A DNA stretch of 64,000 bases from Puniceicoccaceae bacterium (GTDB taxonomy: Bacteria > Verrucomicrobiota > Verrucomicrobiia > Opitutales > Oceanipulchritudinaceae): positions 4,563 to 68,562 of the forward strand of contig JBFOMH010000007.1 of NCBI GenBank assembly GCA_040830765.1. The letters are read 5' to 3'. A program made the position numbers and the translations under genes. Position 1 is the first letter of the stretch; the number at the start of each line of letters is the position of its first letter. Below are positions 12,601-26,393 of the stretch, piece by piece. The notes under the pieces are model-generated. The model had not been told where the DNA came from. It saw only the letters and a list, made by a program, of their open reading frames with translations, and made no database searches.

Positions 12601-15600
12601 GGTGATCAAGTGGAGGTTGGCGGCATAAGTGGCGCCATCGAGCCGGTTACCGGTAAGGGTGGCTTCCGGATTGAGGCTGCCGATATCGGCAAAGCCGAGG
12701 CGAGCTTCCCCGGTAGTACCGTTCTTGACATCAACAGCAAAGACAAGGTCCGCCCCACTATTCCCGCCAGGATCTGTCACATCAAGCTTGAGGAATCCGA
12801 GTTCCCCGTCGAAGGGCCCTGTTCCGGGCAGCTCGATCTTTAAATCAAGGTCGACATCATCGGCATCCGAGACGTCGATGTAGGCCCCATTGCCGAAGTC
12901 CACCCCAAAGGTGATCTCGATGCTCCAGTCAAAGGTGACCGTCAGGGGCGCTTCCATGTCAAAGAGCAGGTGGTCCGGCCCGATGTCAAAGTCGTCAAAG
13001 GTGAGGATTTGCGCCTGGGTGTCTGTGCGTCCCACCGTGAAAGTCCACTCGCGGTAGCGGTCCTCCGGAGGAACCGCCGGGCCAAGGTTGTTTGTCTGGA
13101 CAGGCCCCGAAATGAGATAGGCGGAAAGCGGCCCGGTGAAGGCGGCTGTGATGAGGGACTGGATGATTGTGTCAGGATCGGGATCCACCGCGTTCTCAAC
13201 CCCGTTCTTGATCGTCCGGGTAAGGGCCCGGCGGAAGTCCTCGATAAAGAGGATATCGGCCATTTGGTCGCCGATGAAGGGGAGATCAATACCAAGCACT
13301 TCCCCGGCCAGCTCGTCACTCAGGAGTTCCAGGTAGAGGTCAAGGGTGTCAATCGCCAGGAGGATGTTTTCAAAGGGATCATAGGGCACCACTTCTTCGG
13401 TAATGTCATCCACGATATCCCCGTAATCCGGCTCCGTGACGGTCAGGCCAGCAATGCCCCCACTGGCCGCATACTCACCAATAAAGTCGTTCGGTCCTTC
13501 ACCGCCATAGAACATGGGCAGGACGATTTCGATATCATCGGCAAGGATTAACGGGGCAATCCAGTCACCGTAGGCGACTGTATCGAGAAGTTGGCGACCC
13601 GAGCCACCGAAATCAAGACCCGGCAGAATGAAGACAAAACTGATCAAAACATCCCCGTCCTTGATGAACACCGACAAGGGGCCGACGTTGGAGCGGAAGA
13701 CCAGACCGAGACCTTTCTGACCTCCGGGAATGTCATATTCCTGGCCCTCTCCTATAACATCGATTCCGCCACCTATGTAAGAGGAATCGAGGAGATAAAT
13801 CTGCGAGGGTGAATTCAGATCGGTAGCGGTCTCCAGATGGACGGCCAGCGCTCCATAGACTTCCAGCACGCCGGCACTGGTAAGGTTGGGAGAGGTGGGA
13901 CCTGTGACAATGTCCAGACCCAGCTTGGTGCTGACCTCATTGAACAGGTTCATGCTCAGCAGCAATTCCGTGCTCCCGGTATCGTAATCCAGCTTGACGT
14001 AGTTGACAGGACCGCCACCGCCGTAGGGATCAACGCCGTCCGGAAGGCCGAAGGCTCCCCGCAAGGCCTGGGGAAGGTCCTGCAGGCGCAGCGCAGGCAG
14101 ACCCAATTCAAATCCCTCGGGACCGATGGCAAACTCGGCTGCTGCGAGGACTTCCTCAATATTGGCGGCACCCCGTTCGAACGCACCCGTCAGGTCGAGC
14201 AACTGCCCGACGCTCCGGTTGATGGCCGGCAGAAGTTTGTTCAATTCCGTGAAACTGGTATTCACGTCAAGGACCACATTAAGGAGGCCGTTGACCAGCC
14301 GCCGCACGCTGTCGTAATCGTAATCATCGAGGAAGCGGAGGTCGCCCAGGGAATTCAAGACCAAGCCCCCGGTGGAGGGTTCCGTCGGGACATAAGGATT
14401 CCCGAAATCAACCAGGACAAAGGGGACGGTATAGGGTGCATCATCGAGGGCCTTGAAGTCACTGTCGAAGGCAAGGTCATCAAACCCCTCCTGGACCTGC
14501 ACGACGAGGTTGAAGCTACCAAAGTTACCCTCGGGTTCCGGTATCCCGTTGACCTGGGCAACCGTTCCCGTGTCAGGTGCCACAATGACGTCATCATCCG
14601 AGAAGGTCCCTGTGACGTTGGACAGGAGCAGGTATCCGGTCGATCCGGAAGCGACAACCGTGGCAATGACGGCGATATCACCGGGATCCGCACCAATCAA
14701 AACATCTCCGGGGGTAAAATCGGTCGGTCCGAGCTCATTGTCATAATCCAGCTTAAGCAATTTCTCAACTGTGGCCGGATAGAGGGTGAAGTCCTGCTTC
14801 ATCAACTCTTCCAGGGTGATCTGGTTCTTGGGTCCGCCGGGATCGGCGAGGTCGGCCGAAATCTCAGCGGTCAAGCTCCCGTCGACATGAACATCCACCC
14901 CGACAATGCCATATAGTCCCGAACCGGGAACACCGGTCCCCGGGTTGACGGTAGCCATGGAGAGCCCGAGTTGCATTTCCGCATCCCTTACGAAGAAACG
15001 GCCATCCAGGCTGGTCAGGCCGATGTTACCGCCCTCGATCACGTTGGGATTCCCCACAAGCTCGGTTTCCGCAGGTGGCGGAAGCAAATCCGGCTCAGTC
15101 AGGAACAAGCCAAGGCCCAGCAGGGCTTCGGATCCGTTGATGGTTGAGATCTGGAAGGCTTCAGTCCCCCCCGTGATATCCTTCAAGCGCAGCCCCGAGT
15201 GGAGGAAGTTGTAGGCCGCCTCGAAGCTGAACGGAGCAATGGTGTTCAGGTAGCCGATAAGGTCCGCCATTGTCGGTCCCGGAACATCGTCGATGGATAC
15301 CAGGTGTTCGACGCCATCCCGGGTCTGGATGATAAAGTCCGCCTTGATGGCCACATCGCTGACCTCGGCAGGATATACAACCGGGTAGCCCAATTGTTGC
15401 TGGGAATACTCATTATTGACTTTGATGGTGAAGTCGGTGGATGGATCCAAGGCCGCAATGACAATGCGGGAGGTATCGTAGAGACTTCCGTCAGGCGGTG
15501 TGGTGCTGTCGTAATCAGCAACGAGGACGGCATCAAGGCCGGCATCGGCAATGGCATCGTTCACTTGATTGACCAAGTCCTCAATCGACCAGTACTTCTG

Positions 15601-18600
15601 GAAACCGGGAAGCACTATCTCCACCTCAGGACCGGCGTTCACCTCGACCGAGAAAGCGACATCGAGTAGGAACGGATAAAGGTACTCCCGTTCCGCACCC
15701 CCTAGCGGGACTATGCGAGGCACATCAAACTCCCGCGGGAAGGTGACTGCCTTCACCTCCATGAAGTCGAGGCCATCCTCGCCATTGAGTTCATCAAAGG
15801 AAGTGGTGTCAAAAATGGCAAATCCGGGAGGAGAGAGATCCACCCCCATGGTCATGGCCAAGCCAGTGCGGCCGGATATCGTCACGGAGACATCGGCAGC
15901 CGCAGCCGCGCTGTCAGGCGCGAGCTTGCTGAAGGGATCCAGCGGAACATTGAATTCGAAGGGCACCAGCCCGTCCGCCGTGTCTTCATTGCGGTCATTG
16001 TCGGTGACGATATTGCGACCGTATCCTTCGAGGACGAGTTGATAGGTCAATTCATTGTTACCTGAATGATAGGCAGCCTGAACCAGTCCCGGCCCCAGAA
16101 GAAAATCCAGCCGGTCCGCGAGGGACTGTGCCGTGAAGAAGGTGGTCACGAGGGTCTTCGTGCCATCGATAGTGGTCAGTTTCATCAACCGGTTTGTCCC
16201 ATCGGGTCCTTCAAGGCCGTCGACCCCGACATCAAACACCAGCATGTCAATCAGGCCACCATAGCGTTCACCATCCCCGTCGGCGTAGTTGAAAAACTGC
16301 GACAGGGTAGCATCGGCAAAGGGAATCTGGTAATCGCGGAAAACTTCCGTCTGGGAAAGTTGCTGCAGGGCGGTGCCGAGGCTGGAGATAAGGCCAATCA
16401 TGCTCTCGGCGTTGAGGATGCTGAAGTTGAGCAGCTCGCCAAAGTTGACCAGTCGGATTTCGTTACTGATGCCGCCCGGTCCCGGGACGGAGGATGCGGG
16501 AGAATCCTGGTCGGGAAGCCCGGGGTTGGGATCATACGTGAAGATCAGCCGGAATCTTCGTTCCACATCATCGTATTCTGCCTTGTCGGAGTTGAAGGGA
16601 TCAAAATTCGCCACAAGACGCGCATCCGTCACCTGGAAATTGTCGGGGGGACCAGTTGTGGCATCATCCAGTCCTGCATTAACCGTGACGGGCAGAAGGA
16701 TTTGCACGTTGGAACTACCGCCCTTGCTGGCCTCGAAGAGTTCCGCGGCCGGTACCAGCAGTTCAGAGTAGGTAATGCCCGCGTCAAAGGTCAGCGTGCC
16801 GGAAATCTCCAGGACGTCGTCAGGCGCACCTCCTTGCAACCAGATGGTGCCTCCCGAGTTGAGGGCATTGACACCAGACAGGCCCGCATAGTTGAGGGCG
16901 CGCTGCAAGTCGGCAACCATGTCATCCATGTCCTGGTTCTTCACCCGGACCTGGATGTCCCAGACCGAGTCGGAGGTGGCCTTGAGACGGACTTGACCAC
17001 TGGATTCGACTGCCTCCACACCCGTTCCACTGATAGCGGTATTGATGGCGGCAATCAGTCCCAGAAGGTCACGCCCCTCCGCGGCGCTGATAACATATGT
17101 CGCAAAGGTACCAAGGTTGGTACGCATGTGGAAGACTGCCGTGTCGTCGGTATAAGCATCCCCGTCATCGAAGTCCGTGTCGCCGACCGTCCCACCGGTC
17201 AATTGCACCGTGACTGCCTTGGGCCCGATAAATCCAAGCCCGGATTCAGCATAGGTACTGTCGATGGACAGGAGCGTGATTCCGGCCACCGAGCTGTCAC
17301 CGGAGATGTAGAGGTATCCACCGGATTGACCGGCGGTAATATTGGTAAAGAGTGCCGCATCCAGGGCATCCTGCAGGTCCACGACTAATTTATCGGTGTC
17401 GCCAAGGTTATCGCCCGTACTTACCTTGGTAACATTGACCTGGGCTTGATGAGAGGTCCCATCATCAAACCGTACCCGCAAGGTAAAGAGGGCATCTCCA
17501 CCAAATTCATTGGAATTGGCGATCAGGTCGGCCTCGAGGTCATCCACCAGGCTGGCGGTCAGGCCTTCACTGAAGCCAATATCCGTTTCACTGGGATCCG
17601 CAAAGCGCAGGCTGACCACGCCCGGGACTTCACCGTTCTCCGAGAGGAGGAAGGTTACGTTGGAGCTGTATTCAAAGGTCGCGTTGCCGCTAATGGCATT
17701 GAGGGGCAAGACTGCGGAACTGATCGTCTCGTTACCCATGCCAAGGGGATTGGTGGTCAGGGTCGGCCACAGCCCGAAGGAAAGGTGATTCACTCCGTCA
17801 ATGACGGCGAAAACAAGGTGATCGATATCAGCGTCCGCGAGGGCCAAATTGATAGCAGCCTGCAGACCAGCCTTGTTTACATAATCACCCGCCGGGACCA
17901 GTACCGGAGTGGATTCTCCCAGGTTGCCGAGGCGAAGGAAGAACCCGACATCATGCTCAAGGTTCCAACTGGGGATGGCGCTGTTGCCGGTCACATATCC
18001 AGCGGTCTTCTCCAGTCCAAACTGGGCATCGGTAAATCCGAGCAGGTCGGGATCATTAGCGTCAATCAAGTCTGTCTCAACCGTAGCGTTGAAGTTCAGG
18101 CTGCCGCCGGTGACTTCAGTTCCGAGGAAGCCGACATGCATATGGAAATCAAGCGGGGAAACATTTGACTGAGCGGATACGGTCAGGGGATCAGCCCAGC
18201 GAATGAAGAAGTCCTCCGCATCAATGACGTCATCCGAGGTCTGCCCTCCCGTATGGATGCCGAACTCAAAGCGGAAGCCGAGGGTGGTCGTTACCGGGAC
18301 CTTGACCTGCCCAGCGTTTTCCCATGTCCCGGTGAACGGGAACATCCGGAATGCATCCGCATCCAGGCCAAGATCAATTGGCATGTCCTGGGATACCGAA
18401 AGCTCGAAGCGCAGGACAAACGTCAGCTCGGCATCCGGATCTTCGGTGGTATCACCAGTGTTTATATCGACGATATTGAAGTGAACCTCCGGACCGGAGG
18501 GATCAAAGAAGCTGGTCCGGAAATCGGTCAGGTGCCGGTCCAGTCCATTGTCAAAGATCCCGGATCCCTTCAGGAAGTCTACAATATCCCCGGTTGTGGC

Positions 18601-19473
18601 AGGATGGGAATTCAGGTAATCAACCAACGGAGTAAAGAGCCATGCGGTGAGGAACTCGACGGCATCCGTCCGATCGTCCCCATTGGTATCCAAAGCGTCC
18701 AGCACCTGTTCATCTTCATCCGAAGGATCGAAGAATGCATCCGGATACATGGTACCGGTGAATCCATCCGCGTTGGTGTCGACAGGCAGGCTGAGCAGGT
18801 CCTTCACTGTGGGCGACTCAAATAACTTGATTCCCCCGGTGTCCTCTCCTGTCTGCAATAGAATCGGCATCCGGTCGCCGAGCAATTCTTCCCCATTGAT
18901 GAATTGGCTGATTTGGTAACCCAGGACAGCGATCCCATCCGCCAAACCCTCAGTTGCCGCGTCCGCAGGCACATCAACGGAGGTCTGTGAAACGGCGGCA
19001 AGATCAGCAGAATCCTTTTCAATCACTTGATAATAGGCAGACTCCAAAGAAGGCGGACCATTGCCAGCATGCAGTGTCGTCACAAGTTCACTGGGCCAGC
19101 GGGCAGAAAGGTCCACCGGTCCGGAGGTTAATAGAATTTCCCGGGAGGGATTGAAAAGTCTTGCTGAGAAAGCCCCATGGAGTTCCAGACCTTGTTCCAC
19201 TTCGTCATTTGCTTCCGGCTCAATGCTGACTGAAGCGTCGACCCCAGGCAGCGCTTCGTCTTCGACATTGTCAAAGATGCCCTCACTTCGCTCGGAGCCT
19301 TCAGAATCCACAACAAACGATGTCTCGGCATAAGCAACCTCAACGGACAAGGCTGTATCCTCCACAGGTCCATCGAACTCCGCCAGTATGCCCATTCCAT
19401 CTGCGGATAGCAGCAGCCGAGGCTCCAAAGCCTCCAGCTTGCAAGGCCCCATGGACTGGTTGCGGCTTCCCAT
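3661..19473 (-). CDS. Giant (5270 aa) LEPRxLL-leader RTX-type Ca-binding surface protein/adhesin with C-terminal lectin-like (ConA/LamG-like) domains
   Basis: N-terminal KLEALEPRLLLSADG; dozens of GGxGxDxxxG nonapeptides (about 5440-11180); very acidic composition; two related beta-rich C-terminal modules (SGVWSVEKG...DFKFAGIN and SGSWVTENG...DYKFVVVS). Confidence 0.9.
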   Translation of the reverse strand: MGSRNQSMGPCKLEALEPRLLLSADGMGILAEFDGPVEDTALSVEVAYAETSFVVDSEGSERSEGIFDNVEDEALPGVDASVSIEPEANDEVEQGLELHGAFSARLFNPSREILLTSGPVDLSARWPSELVTTLHAGNGPPSLESAYYQVIEKDSADLAAVSQTSVDVPADAATEGLADGIAVLGYQISQFINGEELLGDRMPILLQTGEDTGGIKLFESPTVKDLLSLPVDTNADGFTGTMYPDAFFDPSDEDEQVLDALDTNGDDRTDAVEFLTAWLFTPLVDYLNSHPATTGDIVDFLKGSGIFDNGLDRHLTDFRTSFFDPSGPEVHFNIVDINTGDTTEDPDAELTFVLRFELSVSQDMPIDLGLDADAFRMFPFTGTWENAGQVKVPVTTTLGFRFEFGIHTGGQTSDDVIDAEDFFIRWADPLTVSAQSNVSPLDFHMHVGFLGTEVTGGSLNFNATVETDLIDANDPDLLGFTDAQFGLEKTAGYVTGNSAIPSWNLEHDVGFFLRLGNLGESTPVLVPAGDYVNKAGLQAAINLALADADIDHLVFAVIDGVNHLSFGLWPTLTTNPLGMGNETISSAVLPLNAISGNATFEYSSNVTFLLSENGEVPGVVSLRFADPSETDIGFSEGLTASLVDDLEADLIANSNEFGGDALFTLRVRFDDGTSHQAQVNVTKVSTGDNLGDTDKLVVDLQDALDAALFTNITAGQSGGYLYISGDSSVAGITLLSIDSTYAESGLGFIGPKAVTVQLTGGTVGDTDFDDGDAYTDDTAVFHMRTNLGTFATYVISAAEGRDLLGLIAAINTAISGTGVEAVESSGQVRLKATSDSVWDIQVRVKNQDMDDMVADLQRALNYAGLSGVNALNSGGTIWLQGGAPDDVLEISGTLTFDAGITYSELLVPAAELFEASKGGSSNVQILLPVTVNAGLDDATTGPPDNFQVTDARLVANFDPFNSDKAEYDDVERRFRLIFTYDPNPGLPDQDSPASSVPGPGGISNEIRLVNFGELLNFSILNAESMIGLISSLGTALQQLSQTEVFRDYQIPFADATLSQFFNYADGDGERYGGLIDMLVFDVGVDGLEGPDGTNRLMKLTTIDGTKTLVTTFFTAQSLADRLDFLLGPGLVQAAYHSGNNELTYQLVLEGYGRNIVTDNDRNEDTADGLVPFEFNVPLDPFSKLAPDSAAAAADVSVTISGRTGLAMTMGVDLSPPGFAIFDTTSFDELNGEDGLDFMEVKAVTFPREFDVPRIVPLGGAEREYLYPFLLDVAFSVEVNAGPEVEIVLPGFQKYWSIEDLVNQVNDAIADAGLDAVLVADYDSTTPPDGSLYDTSRIVIAALDPSTDFTIKVNNEYSQQQLGYPVVYPAEVSDVAIKADFIIQTRDGVEHLVSIDDVPGPTMADLIGYLNTIAPFSFEAAYNFLHSGLRLKDITGGTEAFQISTINGSEALLGLGLFLTEPDLLPPPAETELVGNPNVIEGGNIGLTSLDGRFFVRDAEMQLGLSMATVNPGTGVPGSGLYGIVGVDVHVDGSLTAEISADLADPGGPKNQITLEELMKQDFTLYPATVEKLLKLDYDNELGPTDFTPGDVLIGADPGDIAVIATVVASGSTGYLLLSNVTGTFSDDDVIVAPDTGTVAQVNGIPEPEGNFGSFNLVVQVQEGFDDLAFDSDFKALDDAPYTVPFVLVDFGNPYVPTEPSTGGLVLNSLGDLRFLDDYDYDSVRRLVNGLLNVVLDVNTSFTELNKLLPAINRSVGQLLDLTGAFERGAANIEEVLAAAEFAIGPEGFELGLPALRLQDLPQALRGAFGLPDGVDPYGGGGPVNYVKLDYDTGSTELLLSMNLFNEVSTKLGLDIVTGPTSPNLTSAGVLEVYGALAVHLETATDLNSPSQIYLLDSSYIGGGIDVIGEGQEYDIPGGQKGLGLVFRSNVGPLSVFIKDGDVLISFVFILPGLDFGGSGRQLLDTVAYGDWIAPLILADDIEIVLPMFYGGEGPNDFIGEYAASGGIAGLTVTEPDYGDIVDDITEEVVPYDPFENILLAIDTLDLYLELLSDELAGEVLGIDLPFIGDQMADILFIEDFRRALTRTIKNGVENAVDPDPDTIIQSLITAAFTGPLSAYLISGPVQTNNLGPAVPPEDRYREWTFTVGRTDTQAQILTFDDFDIGPDHLLFDMEAPLTVTFDWSIEITFGVDFGNGAYIDVSDADDVDLDLKIELPGTGPFDGELGFLKLDVTDPGGNSGADLVFAVDVKNGTTGEARLGFADIGSLNPEATLTGNRLDGATYAANLHLITKTVSILPVMTSDFIFDWALPTTDVDDLEGDAVTPGIQLIKLDGMEFDALYAVQEALGQPLQKIAEFIEPFMPVIDILTAEIPILSDLAGEPFTLIDLAGLLSDDVDTRFIEAVADILKLIGEIGQLGSLPTLILGDLTLFDIGTPGSNYFNPDPLTGDPLGAEALLLTTPGLNIDSQFSTLISGSSFLTDLGTGNLVDGLTMPIFDPSLGALEIIKMFVNQDATIVEYELPPLSVGFEYLQVFPVWGPLAVSIEINFSFTLDLHSVGFDTYGIRRWAQTDFRNGALILDGFFFSDGETDTSDDPEIIFQFGLVGAAELNLIIARGGVGGGVNALITFDWNDSVADGHVHISEIYGNIEMDGLLGAFDVGGKLTFELFAFLEVSLLGIEEEFPITPEITLLDFGVDFERLPRLGTEEGGVLYLNMGPNAQDRLNGDTSDGNEDFTVTYVSDGKVKVSSSNLGVTSGQEYEGVHEIIAYGGEGNDTITFKNFDADTSDGGSQITGYVFGGVGDDTIVFDGTTASSDTEGFIIIGGLGNDTLKGGPANDVIYGNEGNDTVWGNGGYDILFGDDGRFATTYISSRIQETDGADNMDGGKGDDVVIGAGGSDILRGGDGIDLILGDGGRFAYTMSGEHVDVAGLLPAAYVPVPISSYVEPAIISAGIDAVEDAVLDRIRAANLGLGGNDEIHGDGGNDLVLGGTGDDTIEGNGGDDILLGGKGFDKISGGANNDSIYGGDQADVLYGNDGDDVMAGGSGNDFMHGDGDNDVMKGDTGADVMFGDAGDDQVFGQTEPDLLFGGVDDDLVVGGSSNDIMFGDDGLIAKLATDLDPTVVSIGIGNAALLVGQFHDQDIRTLDLIITDVVNGDGDDILSGDAGDDIMLGGGGNDLFGGDVDPRLPVANTPAPEDVTPISEDVIIGDGGKVTFNERRFRSIETIIGAVDVDANVDGHPFDDIIYGDNGQDYILGGRGSDYLFGGHGKVVDITEPNFEDALGAFRGPTDPEASDNDIIVGDNGELLFADDTHEPNFGHLEMVRTTDEDDVTGGHEYVEGELDNDVIFGGVNGSVDVLFGSDGQDIILGDNGEIDFSLDEALGAGIPDLNTIDLIRSYRDGLGGEDWISGDQGDDVLIGGTAGDLMYGDDATASHGSLDGEDIMLGDNGKVELINDPSYDFDSPDAYLNDITNFGRLYVQVAASEYPTTVDLIATIDDIDEGDPDFDELSEVEAIGGPDTMSGNAKADIMLGGVNNGGTDFMYGDRVVPDSTTIADDADDIMLGDNGLLDFTYAADTDRTTLDLIQSFEDGLGGTDDMSGNKGEDVAIGGTGDDTIYGDDDDASAASADMDDILIGDNADIFLVAVGSASGGDLKVVLDAAVKTIVTTDEDDDDPLDTGGVDTISGNAGGDIIAGGVEGDYLYGDRASPTASTTADDGDDIILGDNGSWEWLSTGRLDEIYGIDIDANNPELFAKFDPAEADTDLTTLDLVTTEQPRNGGRDWIYGDEGSDLIFGGTDLDTIYGDDADEVDFFAVATLNNDVMFGDHGRLYPQYARWYEDPADTALVPALVDGHVFHARNYFAIHTAEADAGEGDVMHGEEGDDIMLGQQGDDRMWGGSDDDDMTGGHNVSGDQGIGGGYDELGETNAGIPEVTVSLNPSNGDLKMNDLMDGGTGNDSMAGDNTIIWRRGDVANPRFRDLTGDQLYTTGPDTITTNITSDKQLDPDQSTGRDVQLVDHDDGIEAIANGRYGQDVMAGGPGADIMYGQLGDDLMQGDGAIESIQNVGVDEEGDPFVSHELEVVDDTTKTPDTDETLYFNIPEAVTDGDDYMEGNGGNDLMYGGLGQDDMIGGSSALFGLDSVNAALLTLTAEQMRPDGSDIIFGGAGVDIDYNDIGDATWYDDIATTYDEQVILTDPTGHANDADFIMGDNANVYRIVETNADPQAPDVFRTYNYDESFTTDEGSEDRGEIRIIPRAMEQLDYTLGGADYATLGQDYTPSGAAIIDGVADNGLADIIHGEAGDDYIFGMTGSDAIYGEGQDDDIVGGYGNDWIAGGTGQDGVVGDDGLLLTSRNSVEGEPLYGIAGLLDRDASPRYSNGDALGELIYTPGEIQIARIHLEGALKKTADLVPFSYEYGWMAMDDEFHDDDTNTPYADDIIFGGLGSDFLHGGSGDDAMSGAGALPDAYVPTFDLDGNPDGVLNLGYNVFQLPNPINPGDTVSLAVLEAGNVLAFNPVDQDGQHLNNRFRAGEFFLYDEYDPRRKILLDPATGELYKLDDGGGVEFLLNFDESAASLGVTRPAGEVPKPTGQQVESYPQVYDDGKDAIFGDNGNDWIVGGTGRDNIYGGWGNDLLNADDKHDINDDGTKVNTVPDTHPTYEDRAYGGAGRDVLIGNTGGDRLIDWVGEYNSYLVPYAPFGQASVSRTLQPFLPEFLYALSAADGADPTRYVDAIGAIIPEPTKNNPNPSRNGEPHGELGMVLQKDFAWQDQTGAPADPQAGNIPGGPRDVLRSAGFNDGSSDGFFADSGVWSVEKGAYLVEPEFRGGDALSVYHVDEYIPNYFEMLASLNPVKPIKGYKSNAYIVFDYQSDTDFKFAGINVSNSKLEIGHRTETEWIVDVQAVYPGSLKAGTNYNVFLALNGSTVTLTVDNKVSLSHVFELRIDAFGIAHGLKDGMVGLGANNSKAMIDNVIVQRLRPPVTFTLTETFEAVSSGLFAEPISGSWVTENGFVTASLGGDVAAIDLIQLDVSPASLIRLAATLTANGEGGFVFDQYGLEDYKFVVVSSDSGEVLIGHRTAKGFFVDAAFADRDLRKGAQDIEVTLKGSTVSVMWNEQLILGHAFNALVTDGSFGILANHGQVAFDEVTFQTDDFAYASEASPAPIDESVSQPVTVLDDLVAPDSESHSSDSNVQPAIHHPAEFYTISAHTVELQTTDPQPVVVGNFWPPQLSSAVTSFAPPLNFINRDYSVMSLVEFKPLNPVSDTVDADNLYSLY

Positions 19474-19601: not shown

Positions 19602-19617
19602 TTTACTTTAAAGTAAA
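19602..19617. promoter_or_regulatory. Perfect 16-bp palindrome TTTACTTTAAAGTAAA, candidate operator upstream of the giant RTX gene
   Basis: Seen directly. It lies just upstream (minus sense) of a TTGACC -35-like hexamer at 19590-19595. Function is inferred. Confidence 0.4.
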
Positions 19618-19630
19618 TTAACCTTGCCGC

Positions 19631-21616
19631 TCAGACCATGCTCTTCCCGGAAAACCCGGTCGCTTCATCGAGCCAGGTGTCCATTTTCATGACATTTTTC
19701 CGGGACAGGAAAGCGACCCGCTGGGCCTTCCACTGGACAAATCCGTTAACAAAGCGACCGACCAGTCGGGCTCCTGGAATCCCTTTCTGCATACTCCAAG
19801 TGAACAGGGAAACCAGCCACTTGGGAGCAAAGCGGTGCAGTAATTCGTCCTCACAACTGACAAAGGCGATGGCGGATCCGGGATCTCCCTGACGTCCGGA
19901 ACGTCCAAAAAGCTGCCGATCAATGCGTCCCGCCTCGTGGCGTTCGGTGGCGATAACATGGAGGCCTCCAAGCTCTGAAACACCCTCCCCGAGCTCGATA
20001 TCGGTCCCGCGCCCGGCCATGTTGGTGGCGATGGTTATGGTGCCGGGAGCCCCTGCGTTAGCGATGATCTTGGCTTCCTGACGGTCATTGAGGGCATTGA
20101 GCAGGTTGATCTTGAAACCCTCCGAATGGAGCCGCTTGGCAAGGACCTGGCTGGTGAAGATGTTCCGGGTCCCAACGAGGACCGGGCGGCCGGCCTGATG
20201 GCAGGCCTCAACCTCGCTGATGACCGCATCCAGCTTGGACTCCAGGGTCCCGTACATCTGGTCCGTAAGGTGGCGCCGGACCACCGCACGGTTGGTCGGA
20301 ATGCGGATGACCGGGAGATGATAGGTATACCAGAGCTCGGAAGCGGCCTCCCAGGCCGTCCCGGTCATGCCGGAAAGCTTGCTGTAGAGCCGGAAATAAC
20401 GCTGGAAACTGAGCCGGGCCAGTGTCTGGTCGACCGGCGAGAGCGGTACCCCTTCCTTGGCCTCAATGGCCTGATGGAGACCATGGCGCCATTTGCGGTT
20501 GGGCATCATCCGACCGGTGAATTCATCAACGATAACCACCTTGTTCTGCTGGACAACATACTGCTTCCCGCGCTTGAAAAACTCCTTTGCATTGAGGGTC
20601 TGCTCAACCAGCTCAAAGGGGCGTGAAGCCCCTCTCCAGCGTTCCGGGAGGAGGTCCAGTTTCGACTCCACAACCCGCCTGCCAGTGCTGGTCAGGGTCA
20701 CTTCCTTGTAGCGGACATCCACCTTGTAATGCTCGTCCGGTTTCATCTGGTAAGCGATGTCCCAGACCACCTTGTAGACCTGATGGAGGAGGTTGTTGTC
20801 CGTAGGAGCAGAGATAATGAGGGGCGTTACGGCTTCATCAATGAGGACACTGTCCGCCTCGTCGACAATCGCGGTGTGCATGCCGCGCATGACCAGGCCA
20901 TCCGCGGCCTTGTAGGGGTGCAGATGCCGGTCCAGAAGGCGCTGGGTCGGATGTTGCTTGTCTCCGAGCTTGAGCCGGTCGCGGAGGAAGTCGGCCACAA
21001 CCTCCTTACTGGTGGTGTAGGTCACGTCCTTGGCGTAGCCACGGGCCCGGTCTTCCGGTTGCAGGATACTGGTCACGAAGCCTACGGACACGCCGCAAAA
21101 CCCATAGAGCTCTTCAAACCATTCCGCATCCCGCTTGGCGAGATAGTCATTGACCGTAATGATATGGCAAGGACGCCCGGTCCATCCGGCAAGGACGGCT
21201 GCCAGGGCGGCGGTCAGGGTCTTACCTTCCCCAGTTGCCATCTCGGCCAAATAGCCCTGGTGAAGGGCCAGCGCCCCCATGATCTGGACTGTAAAGGGGC
21301 GCATCCCGGTTACCCGCTGGGCAGCTTCACGGATGGCCGCCAAGGCATCCGGAATCGCCTCCTCGACATCCTTTCCGGCCCGCCTGAACTGCTCCTTGAA
21401 CTCACCCAAGTGCTTCTGCAGGGCCTGGTCGGAAAGAAACTTCCAGTCTTCCTCCTTGGAATCAACCAGTTCGGCTATCCGGCGCAAGTTGCGCTGAATG
21501 CCCCTGCGGCGCTGATAGCGACCGATGAGGGAATCAACGAGGCGATCCAGCCCGGTGGGTGGTTCCTTGACCTGCGGTATCTGACAAGGCCGGTATTCCT
21601 GGACGATCGTGCTCAT
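19631..21616 (-). CDS. secA: SecA paralogue (SecA_DEAD-type ATPase), C-terminally truncated, 661 aa
   Basis: Motifs AEMATGEGKT, VHIITVNDYLAKRDA, DEADSVLIDEA, GMTGTA, ATNMAGRGTDI and RSGRQGDPG. The protein ends about 70 aa after RQGDPG. Start placed at the ATG (21616) overlapping the upstream TGA (ATGA); the ORF track start is 21661. Confidence 0.92.
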   Translation of the reverse strand: MSTIVQEYRPCQIPQVKEPPTGLDRLVDSLIGRYQRRRGIQRNLRRIAELVDSKEEDWKFLSDQALQKHLGEFKEQFRRAGKDVEEAIPDALAAIREAAQRVTGMRPFTVQIMGALALHQGYLAEMATGEGKTLTAALAAVLAGWTGRPCHIITVNDYLAKRDAEWFEELYGFCGVSVGFVTSILQPEDRARGYAKDVTYTTSKEVVADFLRDRLKLGDKQHPTQRLLDRHLHPYKAADGLVMRGMHTAIVDEADSVLIDEAVTPLIISAPTDNNLLHQVYKVVWDIAYQMKPDEHYKVDVRYKEVTLTSTGRRVVESKLDLLPERWRGASRPFELVEQTLNAKEFFKRGKQYVVQQNKVVIVDEFTGRMMPNRKWRHGLHQAIEAKEGVPLSPVDQTLARLSFQRYFRLYSKLSGMTGTAWEAASELWYTYHLPVIRIPTNRAVVRRHLTDQMYGTLESKLDAVISEVEACHQAGRPVLVGTRNIFTSQVLAKRLHSEGFKINLLNALNDRQEAKIIANAGAPGTITIATNMAGRGTDIELGEGVSELGGLHVIATERHEAGRIDRQLFGRSGRQGDPGSAIAFVSCEDELLHRFAPKWLVSLFTWSMQKGIPGARLVGRFVNGFVQWKAQRVAFLSRKNVMKMDTWLDEATGFSGKSMV

Positions 21617-23769
21617 ATCCCATATCGACGCTGGAGCAACTGGCGGAGCTTGCGGATCCATTGCCGGAGCAAAGGTTCCCTTGGTAAATCATATCGGATG
21701 CGGCCACCTCTCCCATGGTAAACCGTCACCCCGTCGAGCTCGACAAACTGCGACCGCACCTCGAAAAACGGCTCCGATGCCCGAGTCCCGGACTGGTCCT
21801 GCAGGTCAACGGCGACCTCCCCTCCCCCGGCCCATCCAAGGGCAGGTGACGGCAGGTTCTGCCGGTCAGCTGGAATCACATGGTGGGAGGCAATGCCCAG
21901 GGTCTCGCCGGCCTGCCCGTAAATCTTCACCTCGGACTGCTGAATCTCGTTTGTGAAAAGGCGCGAGGCCTCATTCTGGGAAACGATCGAGGAAAAATAA
22001 TAATTGGAATTGTCGATCAGCTGACCCAGCGCGAAACCCCGTTCAAGCCAGGATCCGACGTAGTCATCGATTTCCGGGGAAACCCAGACACCGGCGTGGG
22101 GGGCCCGGACGATCAGTGCATCGCGTGCCTCATAAAGGCGATCGAGGAGCTTTTGGGTGGCCTCGATCCGGCTTTCCAGGGCCTTGATATCGGCTGTTGA
22201 TTCCCTCAGGGCCCGCCGGAGCATGGCATCCGTTCCATCGAGTTGGGCCTGTGCGCCCTCAATCCGCAATTCCAGTTCCTTGTTGTAGAGCCTGATCAAG
22301 GGATCCCCGGCGACAACTTGCCCACCATCGGGAACAAAGACCTCAACCACCTCACCGGAAACATCCGGCGCCACGACGGAATAGGTTTCCGCCAGCATTA
22401 CCCCCGGAGAGCGAAACCGGTTCGGGAAGGGAATCACATCCAGGACCAGAACCAGCACCAGGATGAAGGACACCACTACGGAAATCGCCCGGAAGCGGGT
22501 CCGGTCCAGTTTGGGATCGCTGGCCAAATAGATGACCAACTTGTAGAGCGGGACGATTATCCAGGCAAAGGCACAGACAACCGCCATGATCATACCAAGG
22601 ATGAGGAAGCGGTCCGCCAGGAAAAAGAGGATCGTCGTGAAGATGATGATTTTGTAAATCCAGCTGGCGATGGCGAAGACGGTCAGCCAGACAGCTTCCT
22701 TGCGGGAACGGGCGGGACTGGTCGACTTCTTGTATCCGAAAGCATAATACTCGATGAAGTGCTTGATCAGGCCGGTCGAGCGCTGGTGCAGGTTGGGGAT
22801 GTCGAGCAGGTCGGAAAGGATATAGTAGCCATCGAAACGCAGGAGCGGATTGGCATTGAAAAGAACGGTTGAGACCGAGGCCACGAACATCATGTTGTAG
22901 GCCAGGCTGTGAATGGTCCCAGGCCCTGTCTTGACCCAGACAAAGGCCGCCAGGGCAGCCACGAACATCTCCACTATCATCCCTGAGGCCCCCACCAGGG
23001 CCCGTTGCCATCGACTGCGGAAGGACCACGAGGCAGTGGCGTCCATGTAGGGTATCGGTGTAAAGAGCAGGAACATGATCCCCATCGTATGCACCTCGCC
23101 GCCAAACCGGCGGCAGGCAAAGGCATGCCCGAACTCATGCAGGGTCTTGATGATGACCAGTCCAAGGTAGAGGAAGAACAGGTTGTCCGGAGCAAGGATT
23201 CCCTCGGACTGGCTCCAGAGGTCCTCGAAGTTGTCGATTACTACCTTCAGGGCCAGACCGACAACCACCAGCCAGACCAAGAGTCCGGCCCAACTGAAAA
23301 CCGCTTTCCCGACCGGGAGGGCCCGCTTGAGAAAATTGTCCGGATCAAAAAGCGGGATCCGGGCAAACATGATGCTGCGAAAGAAGGCCTTCCGCTCCTT
23401 TTGCTTCCGCTTGGTGTAGCGGTCAAAGAGCCGGGCGCTGTCGGGTGCGAGGATGGACTGGAGGAGGTTGGCACCATACAACTGGGCCAGCAGACGGATC
23501 ACCTCTTCCTGTCCGGGGGCATTCTCCGGGTCGGCGTCGAAACACTCGTGCCACACCGAGTCAACCGTCCGGTCAGGACTCAGGCGGGACAGGAATTCAT
23601 AGGCTGGCGGGCGAACCCGGAAAAACTGGTTGTTGAAAATATCCTGCAGCACGTACCAGCGTTCCCCCCGGAAAAACTGCCGGTGCACGCGTACATGCGG
23701 CCGCAGGCTGACGCGCTGCTGGGCAATCCTGAACCAGGACTCACTGTAGGTGGAGGGTGTTTCGGCCAT
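21613..23769 (-). CDS. Site-2 (M50) metallopeptidase fused to a C-terminal HlyD/MFP domain, with a probable N-terminal PqqD/RRE-like domain
   Basis: HEFGH (23125-23139) and NANPLLRFDG S2P motifs lie within several TM segments. The C-terminal part has a lipoyl-like hairpin and coiled coil (VAPDVSGEVVEVFVPDGGQVVAGDPLIRL). The N-terminal ~100 aa show a 3-strand + 3-helix pattern. Confidence 0.85.
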   Translation of the reverse strand: MAETPSTYSESWFRIAQQRVSLRPHVRVHRQFFRGERWYVLQDIFNNQFFRVRPPAYEFLSRLSPDRTVDSVWHECFDADPENAPGQEEVIRLLAQLYGANLLQSILAPDSARLFDRYTKRKQKERKAFFRSIMFARIPLFDPDNFLKRALPVGKAVFSWAGLLVWLVVVGLALKVVIDNFEDLWSQSEGILAPDNLFFLYLGLVIIKTLHEFGHAFACRRFGGEVHTMGIMFLLFTPIPYMDATASWSFRSRWQRALVGASGMIVEMFVAALAAFVWVKTGPGTIHSLAYNMMFVASVSTVLFNANPLLRFDGYYILSDLLDIPNLHQRSTGLIKHFIEYYAFGYKKSTSPARSRKEAVWLTVFAIASWIYKIIIFTTILFFLADRFLILGMIMAVVCAFAWIIVPLYKLVIYLASDPKLDRTRFRAISVVVSFILVLVLVLDVIPFPNRFRSPGVMLAETYSVVAPDVSGEVVEVFVPDGGQVVAGDPLIRLYNKELELRIEGAQAQLDGTDAMLRRALRESTADIKALESRIEATQKLLDRLYEARDALIVRAPHAGVWVSPEIDDYVGSWLERGFALGQLIDNSNYYFSSIVSQNEASRLFTNEIQQSEVKIYGQAGETLGIASHHVIPADRQNLPSPALGWAGGGEVAVDLQDQSGTRASEPFFEVRSQFVELDGVTVYHGRGGRIRYDLPREPLLRQWIRKLRQLLQRRYGI

Positions 23770-23772
23770 GAT

Positions 23773-25635
23773 CTAGATCCAGAAGAAGAGGCGCAGGAAA
23801 TCGATGGTGCGATGGAAGATGATCCAGAAGAAGCTGCGCCGTTCGCTTTCAATCTTGGAAATGCCGCCCATGCCGGGTCGCCACCACTCAGCCGGATCGA
23901 CTTCCAACTGGCAACGGACCAGGAAGACATTTTCCGCCTCCTGGGTAGTTGCTACCGGCTCCACAAGGACTACCCGGGCCGGGAACTTTTCCTTTGGCTG
24001 GCTGGAAAAGGCAATTTTCACCGGGGCGTCCAGCCTCACTTCATGAATGTCCCGCTGGTCCACCTTGGCCTCCACGTAGAGCCGGTCGAGGCGGGCAATC
24101 TTAAAGAGGACATCCCCCTTTCGGACCGGAGCACCGAGGCGGCGTTTGAGATCCCCTTCAATAACAAAGGCGTCAAAGGGGCTTTGAATGGAGGCTTGCG
24201 AAATATGGAACTGGACGGATTCCAGTCGCACCCGTGCCTGCTCCGCCTGGGCTGAGAAGATGCGCATCTCGGCCAGCTCATTGCGGGCCCGGGCCTTTTC
24301 CTCCTCACGCAGATAGCGTGTCAAATCGGCTGCCGAAGCTGCCTCTTCGAGAAGAAGGTCGCGCGTATCCAGACTGAGGAGTTGTTCGCCGGTGTCGAAG
24401 ATATTGCCCACTTCGGCATCAACTTCGGAAATGTAGCCGTCAAAGGGAGCAGAAAGGTAGGCCACATTCTCGGTTCGCAAGAGGAAGGGCGCTTCCACCC
24501 GGTAGGTCATCCCCCCGAAAAACAGGACTGCAAGGGCAATCGCACAACTGGCGGCAAGGACCTTGGTCCAGACTTTCTCGGGACCAATGACCTTGCCTAG
24601 AAATTCCCGGGTGGCCGTGGCCAGGCGGGCGCCGAACCAGCGGTCCCGTCGCTTGAGGTCATGCAGGCGCGGCGTTGCCAGGTCAGCGGTGATCCGAAGC
24701 AGCCGGATTTCCTCGTCGCGGAAAGGCTCGGTTGAGCGCTCAAGGGTAATCACTCCGATGGGCTCCCCTTCGTGGCGCATTGGTATCGAACAGATGAATT
24801 TCACGCCATGGTTGGCAGCGAACTTCTCGTGGTCGCGGGTGATCAGAGTCTCCCCTTCCAATGGCGGATAATAGATTTCCTCGTCCTGATCGTAGGCCTC
24901 CTCCATGGCGGATTCGAGCTCACTGACAACCTGCATTTTCTTCTCAAACTTGTCTGAATGGCTGATGGCCTTGGTACGGATGTAGCCGCGCTGTTCCCAA
25001 CCCAGGCTGGCCCGGTCACACTTGTGCTGCCCGGCCAACTCATTGACGAAAACCATCGCCATCTCGACGAACTTCTTCTTCCCGTCCATCATGACCACAA
25101 GGTCAATGACGGAGGCTGCCTGGGCCGCCGCCCCGGGGGCGCGGTTTGACGATTGATAATGCTGCACATCGGCCGGCAGGCAGTTGGCCAGCAAAAGGCG
25201 TTTCAATGCCTCGTCCACTTCCTCCGGTGATACACCGGACAGGAGAAAAACAGCTGCCCATTGCTCGCTGGCACGGCCAGTCTCCAGCTGAATGGCCAGC
25301 GCTGCTTCCTTGGAGTCGCCTGCTGAGGAAGAGGAAATTTCCCTCAAGGCCTGCCCATTTTCGGCAGCCGTATCACAAAGGACCTCGAGTCGATCAAAGA
25401 AGTGGTTCAATCCTTCCCCACTGAGGTTTGCCGGTGAGGCCACAACCTTGCGCCAGCCCGTTCCCTCGTTCTTTCGCTTGCGCACAACGAGACCGAACCG
25501 GGCCATGCCAATCGTCACAAGGGCATCGATATAGGTTTGCCAGAAAACTGCCGGAGGACCGGAAAAACGCCTTAGTGAAGCCAGCTGTTCAAGGGCATCC
25601 CGGAAGGTGCCGGATTGTTCGTGTTCACTGGACAT
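23773..25635 (-). CDS. HlyD-family membrane fusion protein with an N-terminal GAF-like region
   Basis: GAF-like segment (FICSIPMRHEGEPIGVITLERSTEPFRDEE), one TM helix, then MFP core (LSAPFDGYISEV...GEQLLSLD...SPFDAFVIEG). Confidence 0.82.
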   Translation of the reverse strand: MSSEHEQSGTFRDALEQLASLRRFSGPPAVFWQTYIDALVTIGMARFGLVVRKRKNEGTGWRKVVASPANLSGEGLNHFFDRLEVLCDTAAENGQALREISSSSAGDSKEAALAIQLETGRASEQWAAVFLLSGVSPEEVDEALKRLLLANCLPADVQHYQSSNRAPGAAAQAASVIDLVVMMDGKKKFVEMAMVFVNELAGQHKCDRASLGWEQRGYIRTKAISHSDKFEKKMQVVSELESAMEEAYDQDEEIYYPPLEGETLITRDHEKFAANHGVKFICSIPMRHEGEPIGVITLERSTEPFRDEEIRLLRITADLATPRLHDLKRRDRWFGARLATATREFLGKVIGPEKVWTKVLAASCAIALAVLFFGGMTYRVEAPFLLRTENVAYLSAPFDGYISEVDAEVGNIFDTGEQLLSLDTRDLLLEEAASAADLTRYLREEEKARARNELAEMRIFSAQAEQARVRLESVQFHISQASIQSPFDAFVIEGDLKRRLGAPVRKGDVLFKIARLDRLYVEAKVDQRDIHEVRLDAPVKIAFSSQPKEKFPARVVLVEPVATTQEAENVFLVRCQLEVDPAEWWRPGMGGISKIESERRSFFWIIFHRTIDFLRLFFWI

Positions 25636-25637
25636 GA

Positions 25638-26393
25638 TTAATCCTCCAGGCTGAGTTTGAGGAAGCCGCCCTCACCGGGACGCACGGCTCCACCGGGATT
25701 GGCAAAGATGGCCTTTATCCGCAGCAGGCCGCTGGCGGAGTCAACAACCGGGGAGATGAAGACAATCTCCCCGTTCATGCTGGAATTACCTGATGCTTGA
25801 CCCAATTCGGAGATAAATCCCACCGTGTCTCCCATCGACAATCGGCTGGCCAGAGCGGGATCGATATTGGCCACACAGTAGAATTGGCGTGTATCGACGA
25901 TACGCATCAGGATTTGCGGAGGCTCGCAATATTCACCCACCTCTATTGGCAGGCGGGTAACCGTTCCCGTAAACGGTGCCCGGAGTCGCTTCTTTTCCAG
26001 CGAGTCCTTGGCCAGGTCCAGTTCGATGACCGAGATCTGGTAATCACTGCGGGCCTCATCAACCTCCTCCATGGAAATCGAACTGGTTTTCTCCAGCAGC
26101 ATTTCCGATCGCTCGAGGGTGGCCTTGAGGTTGGCTACGAGCACTTCCCGTCGCTTGATATCCAACTCCTCGGCGATGGAGTCCAGCTCGACAATGACTG
26201 TTCCCTTCTCCACGAAACTGCCTTCACCGTGCCGGATGGCACTGACAGTGCCCGGTAGAGTGGATGTCATTTCCACGTCCGCTACCGCTTCTGTCAGGCA
26301 GCGGATCGTTTTTGCTTCAAGCGTGCTAACGAATGTGGCTGCCGTCAAAACGACGAGGGAGAGGCTTCTTTTCAGGTTCCGTTGAGATATCAT
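25638..26393 (-). CDS. Efflux/T1SS periplasmic adaptor (MFP)
   Basis: Signal/TM N-terminus, LPGTVSAIRHGEGSFVEKGTVIVELD, LRAPFTGTV and ISPVVDSASG. Confidence 0.88.
   Translation of the reverse strand: MISQRNLKRSLSLVVLTAATFVSTLEAKTIRCLTEAVADVEMTSTLPGTVSAIRHGEGSFVEKGTVIVELDSIAEELDIKRREVLVANLKATLERSEMLLEKTSSISMEEVDEARSDYQISVIELDLAKDSLEKKRLRAPFTGTVTRLPIEVGEYCEPPQILMRIVDTRQFYCVANIDPALASRLSMGDTVGFISELGQASGNSSMNGEIVFISPVVDSASGLLRIKAIFANPGGAVRPGEGGFLKLSLED

Follow-up and report, generated by a model that had tools for sequence, protein, structure and literature searches.

Textbooks present SecA as the motor that drives the Sec pathway, and current models centre on its two-helix finger and scaffold at SecY. 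The locus described here raises the question of what a SecA paralogue does that ends before the finger and is encoded in one operon with periplasmic adaptor proteins and a TolC-family channel. It lies in a stretch of 64,000 nucleotides from a Puniceicoccaceae bacterium (contig JBFOMH010000007.1), which as a whole is called the window below.

The short SecA and its truncation point

The gene and its main elements map to the following positions in the window.

19631–21616, minus strand: short SecA paralogue, 661 aa plus stop, with NBD1, preprotein-binding domain, NBD2 and only the first long scaffold helix (open reading frame and translation, Pfam, PDB alignment, AlphaFold, Foldseek)
21218–21232, minus strand: Walker A GEGKT, residues 129–133
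20852–20863, minus strand: DEAD box, residues 252–255 (DEVD in canonical SecA)
20447–20809, minus strand: preprotein-binding domain, approximately residues 270–390, with the family-specific invariant W327 and R332 (Pfam SecA_PP_bind 1.3e-28, invariant columns)
19877–19906, minus strand: helicase motif VI GRSGRQGDPG, residues 571–580 (family alignment)
19655–19771, minus strand: long scaffold helix, residues 616–654, corresponding to approximately E. coli 619–657, the sole part of the C-domain that is kept (AlphaFold secondary structure, E. coli alignment)

Translation of the open reading frame runs from an ATG at 21616 to a stop codon at 19631–19633; an initial annotation of this DNA had given these coordinates and the 661 aa correctly, and the strand has to be stated as minus. 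An alternative longer frame opens at 21661 (676 aa). The start was set at 21616, because all homologues are about 661 aa long and begin at the equivalent position. The motifs of NBD1, the preprotein-binding domain and NBD2 had all been described as intact, which was borne out by Pfam matches to SecA_DEAD (PF07517, 1e-101), SecA_PP_bind (PF01043, 1e-28) and P-loop_SecA (PF21090, 7e-56) and by an alignment of 36 homologues, in which GEGKT (129–133), DEAD (252–255), TGT (418–420), TNMAGRGTDI (531–540) and GRSGRQGDPG (571–580) are invariant.

Neither SecA_SW (PF07516) nor SEC-C was matched by the short SecA. The protein continues for 81 residues after RQGDPG, a distance first counted as about 70. 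Its alignment with B. subtilis SecA stops at residue 603 of 841. In the alignment with E. coli SecA, R639 pairs with R642, which places the end of the short SecA at E. coli residue ~664, at the close of the first scaffold helix (619–668) and before the tip of the two-helix finger (793–799). The earlier claim that wing domain, two-helix finger and C-tail are missing therefore stands. In the AlphaFold model (pLDDT 79.8), residues 616–654 form a single long helix, and the top Foldseek matches of this model are all SecA. The short SecA scores below the cut-off of housekeeping SecA models (NF009538, 636 bits vs 814; TIGR00963, 621 vs 800) and also of SecA2 models (TIGR03714, 532 vs 930; TIGR04221, 460 vs 725; TIGR04397, 556 vs 1085; NF012136, 403 vs 1100).

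Conservation across the family

If the gene were a secA pseudogene, decaying or truncated, or a product of misassembly, its shorter length would be explained but nothing else, and the chance that this is the right explanation is negligible. Of the 150 top representatives at 50% identity, 133 measure 600–730 aa; a length so widely shared belongs to the family and did not arise by chance truncation. A length of 640–700 aa is kept in >130 clusters at 50% identity, and strain-specific decay, named beforehand as a refuting observation, is thereby ruled out. Further points against decay are the conserved family motifs at both termini and the intact gene in all 11 carrier genomes of the phylum, save one in which it is split across contig ends. 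In addition, a quick tree groups the canonical SecAs in one clade (99% SH-aLRT), and the short proteins fall outside it.

Elements that distinguish the family map as follows.

21554–21616, minus strand: N-terminal extension, residues 1–21, motif EYR.., present across the short family
21515–21553, minus strand: helix 22–34, GLDxxVDxxIG, homologous to the N-terminal helix with which SecA binds lipid and SecY, basic there but acidic or neutral here (alignment, charge count)
20897–20971, minus strand: NBD1 insertion of ~19 residues within residues 216–240, LGxxxxPTRRL...GLVMRG, conserved in the family
19646–19684, minus strand: C-terminal end motif MDTWLDEAxxFxG, residues 645–657 (family alignment)

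Before the SecA-homologous start, members of the short family carry a median of 25 extra residues, compared with ~1.5 in canonical SecA. Within helix 22–34, G22, D24 and G32 are invariant in the 36 aligned homologues, and the mean net charge of the helix is -0.30 in 138 short proteins vs +1.0 in 12 canonical ones (p = 8e-4). The NBD1 insertion is missing from the SecA of B. subtilis and E. coli and from the host genome's own canonical SecA. In the end motif, D646 and W648 are invariant, and (L/M)(S/A)F is retained down to members at 38–47% identity.

The operon and the M50-adaptor

Upstream of the short secA lie four genes on the same strand.

21613–23769, minus strand: M50-adaptor, 718 aa (Pfam, profile and structure matches)
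23773–25635, minus strand: GAF-adaptor, 620 aa, with a cytoplasmic part (1–358) containing a GAF domain, a membrane helix (359–377) and a periplasmic adaptor (profile searches)
25638–26393, minus strand: short periplasmic adaptor, 251 aa (profile searches)
26326–28197, minus strand: TolC-family outer-membrane channel, 623 aa (Pfam OEP 2.8e-34; TIGR01844 3.9e-31, below cut-off)

The operon thus encodes three adaptor-bearing proteins and one OEP protein, and profile searches found no ABC domain in any of its five proteins. The M50-adaptor consists of a cytoplasmic beta3-alpha3 N-domain, ~7 membrane helices and a periplasmic part, the fold of which matches the AcrA, MexA and MacA adaptors. Its S2P metal-binding motifs HEFGH (211–215) and NANPLLRFDG (305–314) are intact and both lie in the membrane-helix part. 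With a match to NF041824 below the cut-off (8e-50), the M50 domain is similar to RiPP leader peptidases.

The stop codon of the M50-adaptor gene overlaps the start of the short secA in an ATGA, as the initial annotation had it and as can be read in the sequence ...GGGATATGAGC. This adjacency is obligate. In five phyla, 10/10 short-SecA loci have the M50-adaptor gene immediately upstream, its stop codon either overlapping the secA start or lying no more than 21 nt from it. The two genes are also contiguous in 12/12 loci of 11 genomes of the phylum; in all 22 loci examined the M50-adaptor gene is directly upstream, overlapping or at most ~100 nt off. Next to canonical secA it was found in none of ~70 loci, a control set obtained from a motif search with the family alignment that gave 80 loci, ~70 of them housekeeping secA because of the shared motifs. 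The identities of short SecA and M50-adaptor to the window proteins run in parallel (r = 0.98, 27 pairs, with two proteins paired when their contigs were of the same length and not by contig look-up). The whole five-gene module is kept in the same order in Methylomirabilota (L003) and in a second metagenome contig (JGI).

GAF-adaptor, short adaptor and M50-adaptor also occur as a related triad, with no SecA at all, in 27 other genomes of the phylum, and no ABC gene was present within the triads in the three loci opened. The membrane module can therefore exist without the short SecA ATPase.

Three candidates for a fusion of SecA with a partner were rejected. A 1384-aa open frame suggesting an M50-adaptor/SecA fusion in one genome (G062) arose by chance in GC-rich DNA, the adaptor gene being in another frame. 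Of the other two, the 830-aa protein P0040 reflects an internal duplication or an assembly artefact and P0225 proved to be a long canonical SecA; neither links SecA to a partner domain.

Giant proteins with an LEPR leader

Two candidate cargo genes lie downstream of the short secA.

3661–19473, minus strand: candidate cargo 1, RTX-type giant of 5270 aa with the N-terminal leader LEPRLLLSADG, starting 157 nt after the short secA stop
3–3365, minus strand: candidate cargo 2, second giant with an LEPR leader, 2649-aa frame running off the window (leader match)

In the host genome, the candidate cargos measure 2,600–15,000 aa and begin with basic residues, after which comes LEPRLLLS(A/G); the element common to six of them is N-terminal. 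Their leaders lack the hydrophobic core of a Sec signal, with a maximum hydropathy of only 0.8–1.7; genuine signal peptides or anchors from this region reach 2.35–3.2. A 16-bp palindrome separates the short secA from the giant gene; it occurs nowhere else in the genome and so does not mark a regulon.

The short SecA is present in 11 of 151 genomes of the phylum. Matches to the LEPR model NF012209 (LEPR-8K) were found in the identical 11 genomes; the frames concerned are 615 to 20,466 aa long, mostly >2,000 aa. A high-scoring orthologue of the M50-adaptor, encoded contiguously with the short secA, is again confined to these 11/151. The hypergeometric probability of hitting exactly those 11 by chance is 6e-17, a figure inflated by clade structure. 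An LEPR gene starts <350 nt past the short secA in 4/11 genomes. In other phyla, LEPR matches occurred in 6/9 genomes with a short SecA vs 0/14 control genomes; the model covers 24 positions only, and the other 3/9 gave no match. This three-way co-occurrence shows a functional link between the short SecA, the M50-adaptor and LEPR proteins and does not in itself give the mechanism.

Relation to the housekeeping Sec machinery

The host genome also encodes a normal SecA of 1034 aa (contig C18), which carries its only SecA_SW domain; a profile search found no wing or scaffold domain encoded in trans outside this protein. SecY is present in one copy and no SecY2 was found in the host genome, so the short SecA has no SecY2 partner.

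How such a protein might behave at SecYEG can be judged from truncations of E. coli SecA, namely N68 (SecA1-609, PDB 5K9T) and N643–N668, among which N664 comprises the same domains as the short SecA (PMC5456053). N649–N668, which span the end point of the short SecA, have high ATPase activity, yet neither SecYEG nor membranes raise their pOmpA translocation above 0%, and translocation requires N828–831 (PMC5456053). De-repressed in ATPase and inactive in translocation, these laboratory fragments were engineered from a housekeeping protein (PMC5456053). The short SecA, in contrast, is an ancient paralogue that occurs naturally and has conserved terminal additions of its own and dedicated partners. 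Hsieh et al. tied the scaffold-helix segment 643–668 to functional contact with SecYEG, and N643–N668 regain activity once C-terminal fragments are supplied in trans (PMC5456053). Both the preprotein-binding domain and the equivalent of segment 643–668 are present in the short SecA, so contact with SecY is possible.

It might therefore be asked whether the short SecA is an accessory Sec factor. Export would then take two steps, in which the short SecA delivers LEPR proteins to the housekeeping SecYEG and the adaptor/TolC part collects them from the periplasm; in one variant, the short SecA may pair in a heterodimer with full-length SecA, the latter lending its two-helix finger in trans. There are precedents for both steps, since mycobacterial SecA2 acts together with SecA1 and SecYEG, and MacAB-TolC takes the enterotoxin STII from the periplasm. 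The retained preprotein-binding domain and scaffold helix are in line with such a role, as is the AlphaFold model, which is closest to the SecY-bound SecA conformations 5eul and 6itc (TM-score 0.77), and the rescue of N643–N668 by C-terminal fragments points the same way. However, this explanation is unlikely. The short SecA has no finger and the genome no second SecY, the cargo lacks a hydrophobic signal core, and the lipid- and SecY-binding N-terminal helix is altered in charge and buried behind an extension of 21–25 residues. Moreover, E. coli fragments of equal length translocate nothing with SecYEG alone, and a distribution that tracks M50-adaptor and LEPR proteins exactly would not be needed for a general Sec helper.

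A possible exporter driven by the short SecA

The initial annotation had proposed that the protein does not drive SecYEG in the standard way and that the M50-adaptor is its best partner candidate. This reading agrees with all computable tests and is supported by them. Taken together, the short SecA is probably a functional, specialised ATPase that powers, from the cytoplasm, an envelope-spanning exporter of TolC type that handles giant LEPR-leader proteins and has no ABC protein. Besides this motor, the exporter would comprise the M50 protease-adaptor, the GAF-adaptor, the short adaptor and the outer-membrane channel.

From the domain layout, export might proceed as follows. The LEPR leader would be caught by the SecA clamp, by the cytoplasmic N-domain of the M50-adaptor, or by both. 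The short SecA could then dock at the cytoplasmic face of M50-adaptor and GAF-adaptor via its N-terminal extension, its NBD1 insertion or its LSF-type C-terminal end; the cytoplasmic domain of the GAF-adaptor is an equally possible docking site. ATP-driven cycling of the clamp would hold the chain unfolded and feed it, N-terminus first, through the inner-membrane assembly into the adaptor tube and the outer channel, the leader would be cut off by the HExxH site, and direction might come from the folding of RTX repeats outside the cell. We infer docking at the M50-adaptor, independence of SecYEG, transport direction and leader cleavage from the gene context and the conserved elements.

A more far-reaching reading, which we put forward tentatively and rate at a little less than an even chance, is that of a separate diderm export route, in which a SecA-derived motor threads giant proteins without SecYEG or an ABC transporter and LEPRxLL is a dedicated address tag. 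The motor would be stripped of every SecY-engaging element and would pass its cargo N-terminus first, possibly during translation, through three adaptor-bearing membrane proteins and the TolC-like channel, with an S2P-type leader peptidase among the adaptor-bearing proteins of the hetero-oligomer. If true, the SecA engine would be reusable on a different conduit, with a large ancient family retaining motor and clamp only, and the export of proteins of 5,000–20,000 residues without a Sec signal or an ABC exporter in Verrucomicrobia, Planctomycetes and others would be explained. Counting against an exporter, no obvious protein-conducting channel is encoded. To our knowledge, S2P-type membrane domains are proteases and are not known as translocation pores.

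The short SecA might also be no translocation motor at all but an ATP-dependent holdase, unfoldase or gatekeeper that hands the LEPR leader to the M50 protease and regulates this protease, while the energy for transport would come from elsewhere, for instance from folding outside the cell or from the proton-motive force, acting through the membrane proteins that bear the adaptors. The adaptor triads that have no neighbouring ATPase gene fit this explanation, as does the similarity of the M50 domain to RiPP leader peptidases, and the two-helix finger, usually credited with pushing the chain, is lost (PMC8082313). On the other hand, motor motifs that are invariant over a very deep family are expected for repeated ATP turnover, and a cargo of thousands of residues would need sustained unfolding or feeding. 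We regard this explanation, which in practice overlaps with the exporter model, as quite improbable. The three-way co-occurrence puts a name to motor, partner and cargo alike, and the exporter model is thereby directly testable.

Comparison with known systems

The basic observation was already published in silico in 2015, when Kamneva, Poudel and Ward (PLoS One) described secondary SecA_DEAD domain proteins and their conserved locus (PMC4452313). It is the same family, with SecA_DEAD, preprotein-binding domain and NBD2 and with SecA_SW absent or a fragment, and the locus likewise contains M50/HlyD, GAF/HlyD, HlyD and sometimes OEP genes in Verrucomicrobia, Planctomycetes, Proteobacteria and others (PMC4452313). 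The short SecA shares the features by which that family was defined, being a second copy beside a canonical SecA with a conserved neighbourhood and a separate phylogeny. The authors had independently proposed that the SecA-like ATPase replaces the ABC protein and that the M50 membrane domain is perhaps the pore; the cargo was not named and the truncation point not mapped (PMC4452313). Among the carriers they named is Methylobacterium extorquens AM1, with META1p2399–2402 (PMC4452313). What is added here is the end point at E. coli ~664, the N-terminal extension, the NBD1 insertion and the C-terminal end motif, together with the obligate translational coupling of M50-adaptor and secA, the exact co-occurrence with LEPR proteins and the SecA-less sister triads. 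A literature search found no experimental study of the short SecA family and no publication linking LEPR cargo to it.

SecA2 proteins (Mycobacterium, 4UAQ; Clostridioides, 6SXH; Listeria; Streptococcus SecA2-SecY2) are likewise second SecAs, present alongside an essential SecA1, for a subset of exported proteins. They measure ~760–810 aa, keep scaffold domain and two-helix finger and work via SecYEG or SecY2, whereas the short SecA has neither finger nor SecY2. Type I secretion (HlyB-HlyD-TolC; the LapA system) is similarly tripartite and spans the envelope, with adaptors, a TolC-family channel and cargo that includes giant RTX proteins, such as the adhesin LapA, and is devoid of a Sec signal. 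In contrast to its ABC transporter, the ATPase of the short-SecA operon is soluble and SecA-derived, and the operon has three different adaptor-bearing proteins, two of which carry a further part, an S2P-type protease in one and a GAF domain in the other. The type I signal is C-terminal and uncleaved, while the LEPR leader, the putative signal here, is N-terminal, which would imply N-to-C transport.

SecA_DEAD and preprotein-binding modules were also reported inside giant proteins of Omnitrophota and Actinobacteria, where the authors proposed that the embedded module helps to export the giant protein itself (West-Roberts et al. 2023, preprint, 10.1101/2023.11.21.568195). These modules, too, have no scaffold or wing domain and are tied to giant proteins. 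They lie in cis, within the giant protein and beside membrane helices, whereas the short SecA is a separate protein of 661 aa encoded beside its candidate cargo and coupled to an adaptor/TolC machine.

Operon organisation

The short secA comes fifth in a compact operon, all of which lies on the minus strand; the strand had been absent from the initial annotation.

Features of the operon and the neighbouring giant genes (window coordinates)
28197-26326, minus strand: TolC-family channel
26393-25638, minus strand: periplasmic adaptor, 251 aa
25635-23773, minus strand: GAF-adaptor
23769-21613, minus strand: M50 protease-adaptor (M50-adaptor), 718 aa
ATG at 21616, stop at 19631-19633, minus strand: short SecA, 661 aa, one intact gene
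19473-3661, minus strand: RTX-type giant protein, 5270 aa, starting 157 nt after the short secA
3365-3, minus strand: second giant protein, running off the window

The short secA stop is followed, up to the start of the giant gene, by an AT-rich spacer of 157 nt that contains a perfect 16-bp palindrome, TTTACTTTAAAGTAAA (19602-19617), which is unique in the genome allowing up to one mismatch and could be an operator or a transcript-processing site of the cargo gene.

Domain structure and end point of the short SecA

Pfam matches in the short SecA were SecA_DEAD, SecA_PP_bind and P-loop_SecA, with no match to the wing/scaffold (SecA_SW) or SEC-C models, and all NCBIfam curated SecA and SecA2 models scored far under their own cut-offs. 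The short SecA has Walker A, the DEAD box and motifs III, V and VI, none of which varies among 36 homologues. Among solved structures, the protein aligned to residues 18-603 of the 841 of Bacillus subtilis SecA. Its R639 aligns with R642 of Escherichia coli SecA, so that the C-terminus falls at about E. coli residue 664, within the first long scaffold helix (619-668) and ahead of the finger tip (793-799) and the zinc finger (885-897). The AlphaFold model (pLDDT 79.8) shows a SecA motor with the clamp closed and a single long terminal helix (616-654), and its strong Foldseek matches were all SecA, the engineered truncation SecA-N68 among them. The proposal made from sequence, that wing, two-helix finger and C-tail are lacking and the motifs intact, was therefore correct, and the structural comparison with E. 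coli SecA that it called for places the end point before the finger. The length of 661 aa was also right, whereas 81 residues, not about 70, follow RQGDPG. Several members (P0009, P0012 and P0095) are titled 'prepilin peptidase' in NCBI records, clearly a misnomer spreading through annotation.

Several elements are specific to the family. An N-terminal extension of approximately 21-25 residues is present, and the GLDxxVDxxIG helix, homologous to the basic lipid- and SecY-binding N-terminus of SecA, is acidic or neutral here (mean charge -0.30 versus +1.0 in canonical SecA, p = 8e-4). NBD1 carries a conserved insertion of about 19 residues within residues 216-240, W327 and R332 are invariant in the preprotein-binding domain, and the C-terminal end ..MDTWLDEALSFxG is conserved, its (L/M)(S/A)F motif being kept even in the most distant members. 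The C-domain of SecA engages SecY and restrains the ATPase, and these elements are candidates for partner-binding or regulatory elements replacing it.

A separate family

More than 100 clusters of 657-678 aa, with identity as low as 55%, were recovered from 5.8 billion proteins; they belong to Verrucomicrobiota, Acidobacteriota and Methylomirabilota. When cluster representatives (50% identity) were searched exhaustively with HMMER, 133 of the best 150 were 600-730 aa long, with identity down to 38%. Length is kept unusually strictly: down to 55% identity, close orthologues are nearly all 657-664 aa, and those of the M50-adaptor nearly all 716-720 aa. In a quick maximum-likelihood tree with SH-aLRT support, the canonical SecAs form one clade (99%), which includes the genome's own 1034-aa SecA, and the short proteins lie outside it as two deep groups. 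Decay is excluded; the strain-specific decay named earlier as a refuting outcome fails, as the length is kept family-wide and the family is separate from the canonical clade. The genome encodes one normal SecA, one SecA_SW domain (within that SecA) and one SecY, which leaves no split gene and no SecY2.

This housekeeping SecA (L001 22-3123, on contig C18 of the same genome) has about 100 extra residues in the preprotein-binding domain and, at its C-terminus, no cysteines at the place of the E. coli CPCGSGKKYKQCH zinc finger.

The M50-adaptor as probable partner

The M50-adaptor TGA overlaps the short SecA ATG (GGGATATGAGC), and the ATGA overlap described for this pair is real. Among 83 loci compared, the M50-adaptor was directly upstream in all 10 short-SecA loci (from Methylomirabilota, three orders of Planctomycetota, Verrucomicrobiota, Burkholderiales and three Gammaproteobacteria), overlapping the short secA in five and separated by 1-21 nt in the others; it adjoined a canonical secA in none of about 70. 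In the phylum of the window, short SecA was found in 11 of 151 genomes (12 loci), and M50-adaptor orthologues (>600 bits) occurred in exactly those 11, always contiguous with it. Across 27 pairs, assigned to each other on the basis of equal length of the longest contig, identities to the two window proteins run parallel (r = 0.98, mean difference 0.4 points).

The M50-adaptor model (pLDDT 82.9) starts with a small beta3-alpha3 domain in the cytoplasm. About seven membrane helices follow, in which HEFGH and NxxPxxxxDG are intact, then an adaptor like AcrA, MexA and MacA, and finally a basic C-terminal helix. This last helix (residues 700-718, window 21613-21700, ..LLRQWIRKLRQLLQRRYGI) is conserved and amphipathic and follows the periplasmic beta-barrel; its terminus, (K/R)(R)(Y/F)xx, recurs in other phyla.

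Distant M50-adaptor paralogues (23-30% identity) were found in 27 further genomes of the 151, none of which has LEPR proteins. Three such loci (L094 5366-10348, L095 4418-10123 and L096 7672-14848) each hold a triad of a long (GAF-)adaptor, a short adaptor and the distant paralogue, with no SecA or ABC gene inside. The membrane module therefore predates, or is more widespread than, the version coupled to SecA. In L095, a radical-SAM/SPASM gene precedes the triad, and circularly permuted ATP-grasp and Alpha-E genes come after it. Two loci, a SecA-type one of Methylomirabilota (L003) and the verrucomicrobial SecA-less L094, have a full-length sigma-70 (rpoD-type) gene immediately upstream of the adaptor module, at 1129-3081 and 2895-4919 respectively.

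LEPR proteins as candidate cargo

Matches to the NCBIfam motif LEPR-8K (NF012209) occurred in exactly the 11 of 151 genomes with short SecA, an overlap with a chance probability of 6e-17 (hypergeometric; inflated by shared ancestry). The LEPR frames there span 615 to 20,466 aa, most exceeding 2,000 aa, and in four of the 11 genomes, that of the window included, fewer than 350 nt separate the short secA from the start of a downstream LEPR gene. Outside the phylum, six of nine short-SecA genomes had LEPR matches versus none of 14 controls. G069, a 2.1-Mb genome of the same genus, is without short SecA, M50-adaptor orthologue and LEPR proteins alike.

The genome of the window encodes six LEPR proteins (2,649-15,026 aa). 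The leader runs from a few basic residues through (F/L)ELExLEPRLLLS(A/G)(D/E)G into an acidic disordered stretch. The best 12-residue hydropathy of the six was 0.8-1.7, compared with 2.35-3.2 for signal peptides and anchors of the operon, and they thus have no Sec-type signal.

Possible function and earlier work

SecA is known to insert its finger into SecY, to trap the chain in its clamp and to bind lipid, SecY and the ribosome through its N-terminus (PMC8082313). The closest yardstick is provided by E. coli SecA fragments: those ending at N649-N668 have high ATPase activity and 0% translocation even with SecYEG, and translocation requires N828-831 (PMC5456053). By this analogy, the short SecA is unlikely to drive SecYEG in the standard way, and the initial interpretation, that it couples to another partner, gains support from these fragments and from the adjacent M50-adaptor. 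It is probably the dedicated motor or unfoldase of an ABC-less TolC-type exporter for LEPR giants, docked on the M50-adaptor/GAF-adaptor assembly. Export in two steps by way of SecYEG, with SecA1 possibly supplying the missing helices, would have to accommodate leaders of such low hydropathy and appears unlikely. Slightly less likely still, the protein would be no motor but would serve the leader peptidase as chaperone or gatekeeper, a role that fits poorly with the invariant ATPase motifs.

[quoted passage not shown] No experimental follow-up of that system, and no paper tying it to LEPR proteins, was found in the literature. The short SecA is a new member of a family known computationally. 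New here are the precise point of truncation, the elements specific to the family, the obligate M50-adaptor coupling, the exact LEPR match and the SecA-less triads. A 2023 preprint (10.1101/2023.11.21.568195) describes a parallel case, SecA modules that lack the scaffold and are embedded in giant proteins of Omnitrophota. In the 4930-aa protein P0165, residues 2980-3552 resemble the SecA motor (33% identity to the short SecA), and this may likewise be a SecA module inside a giant protein.
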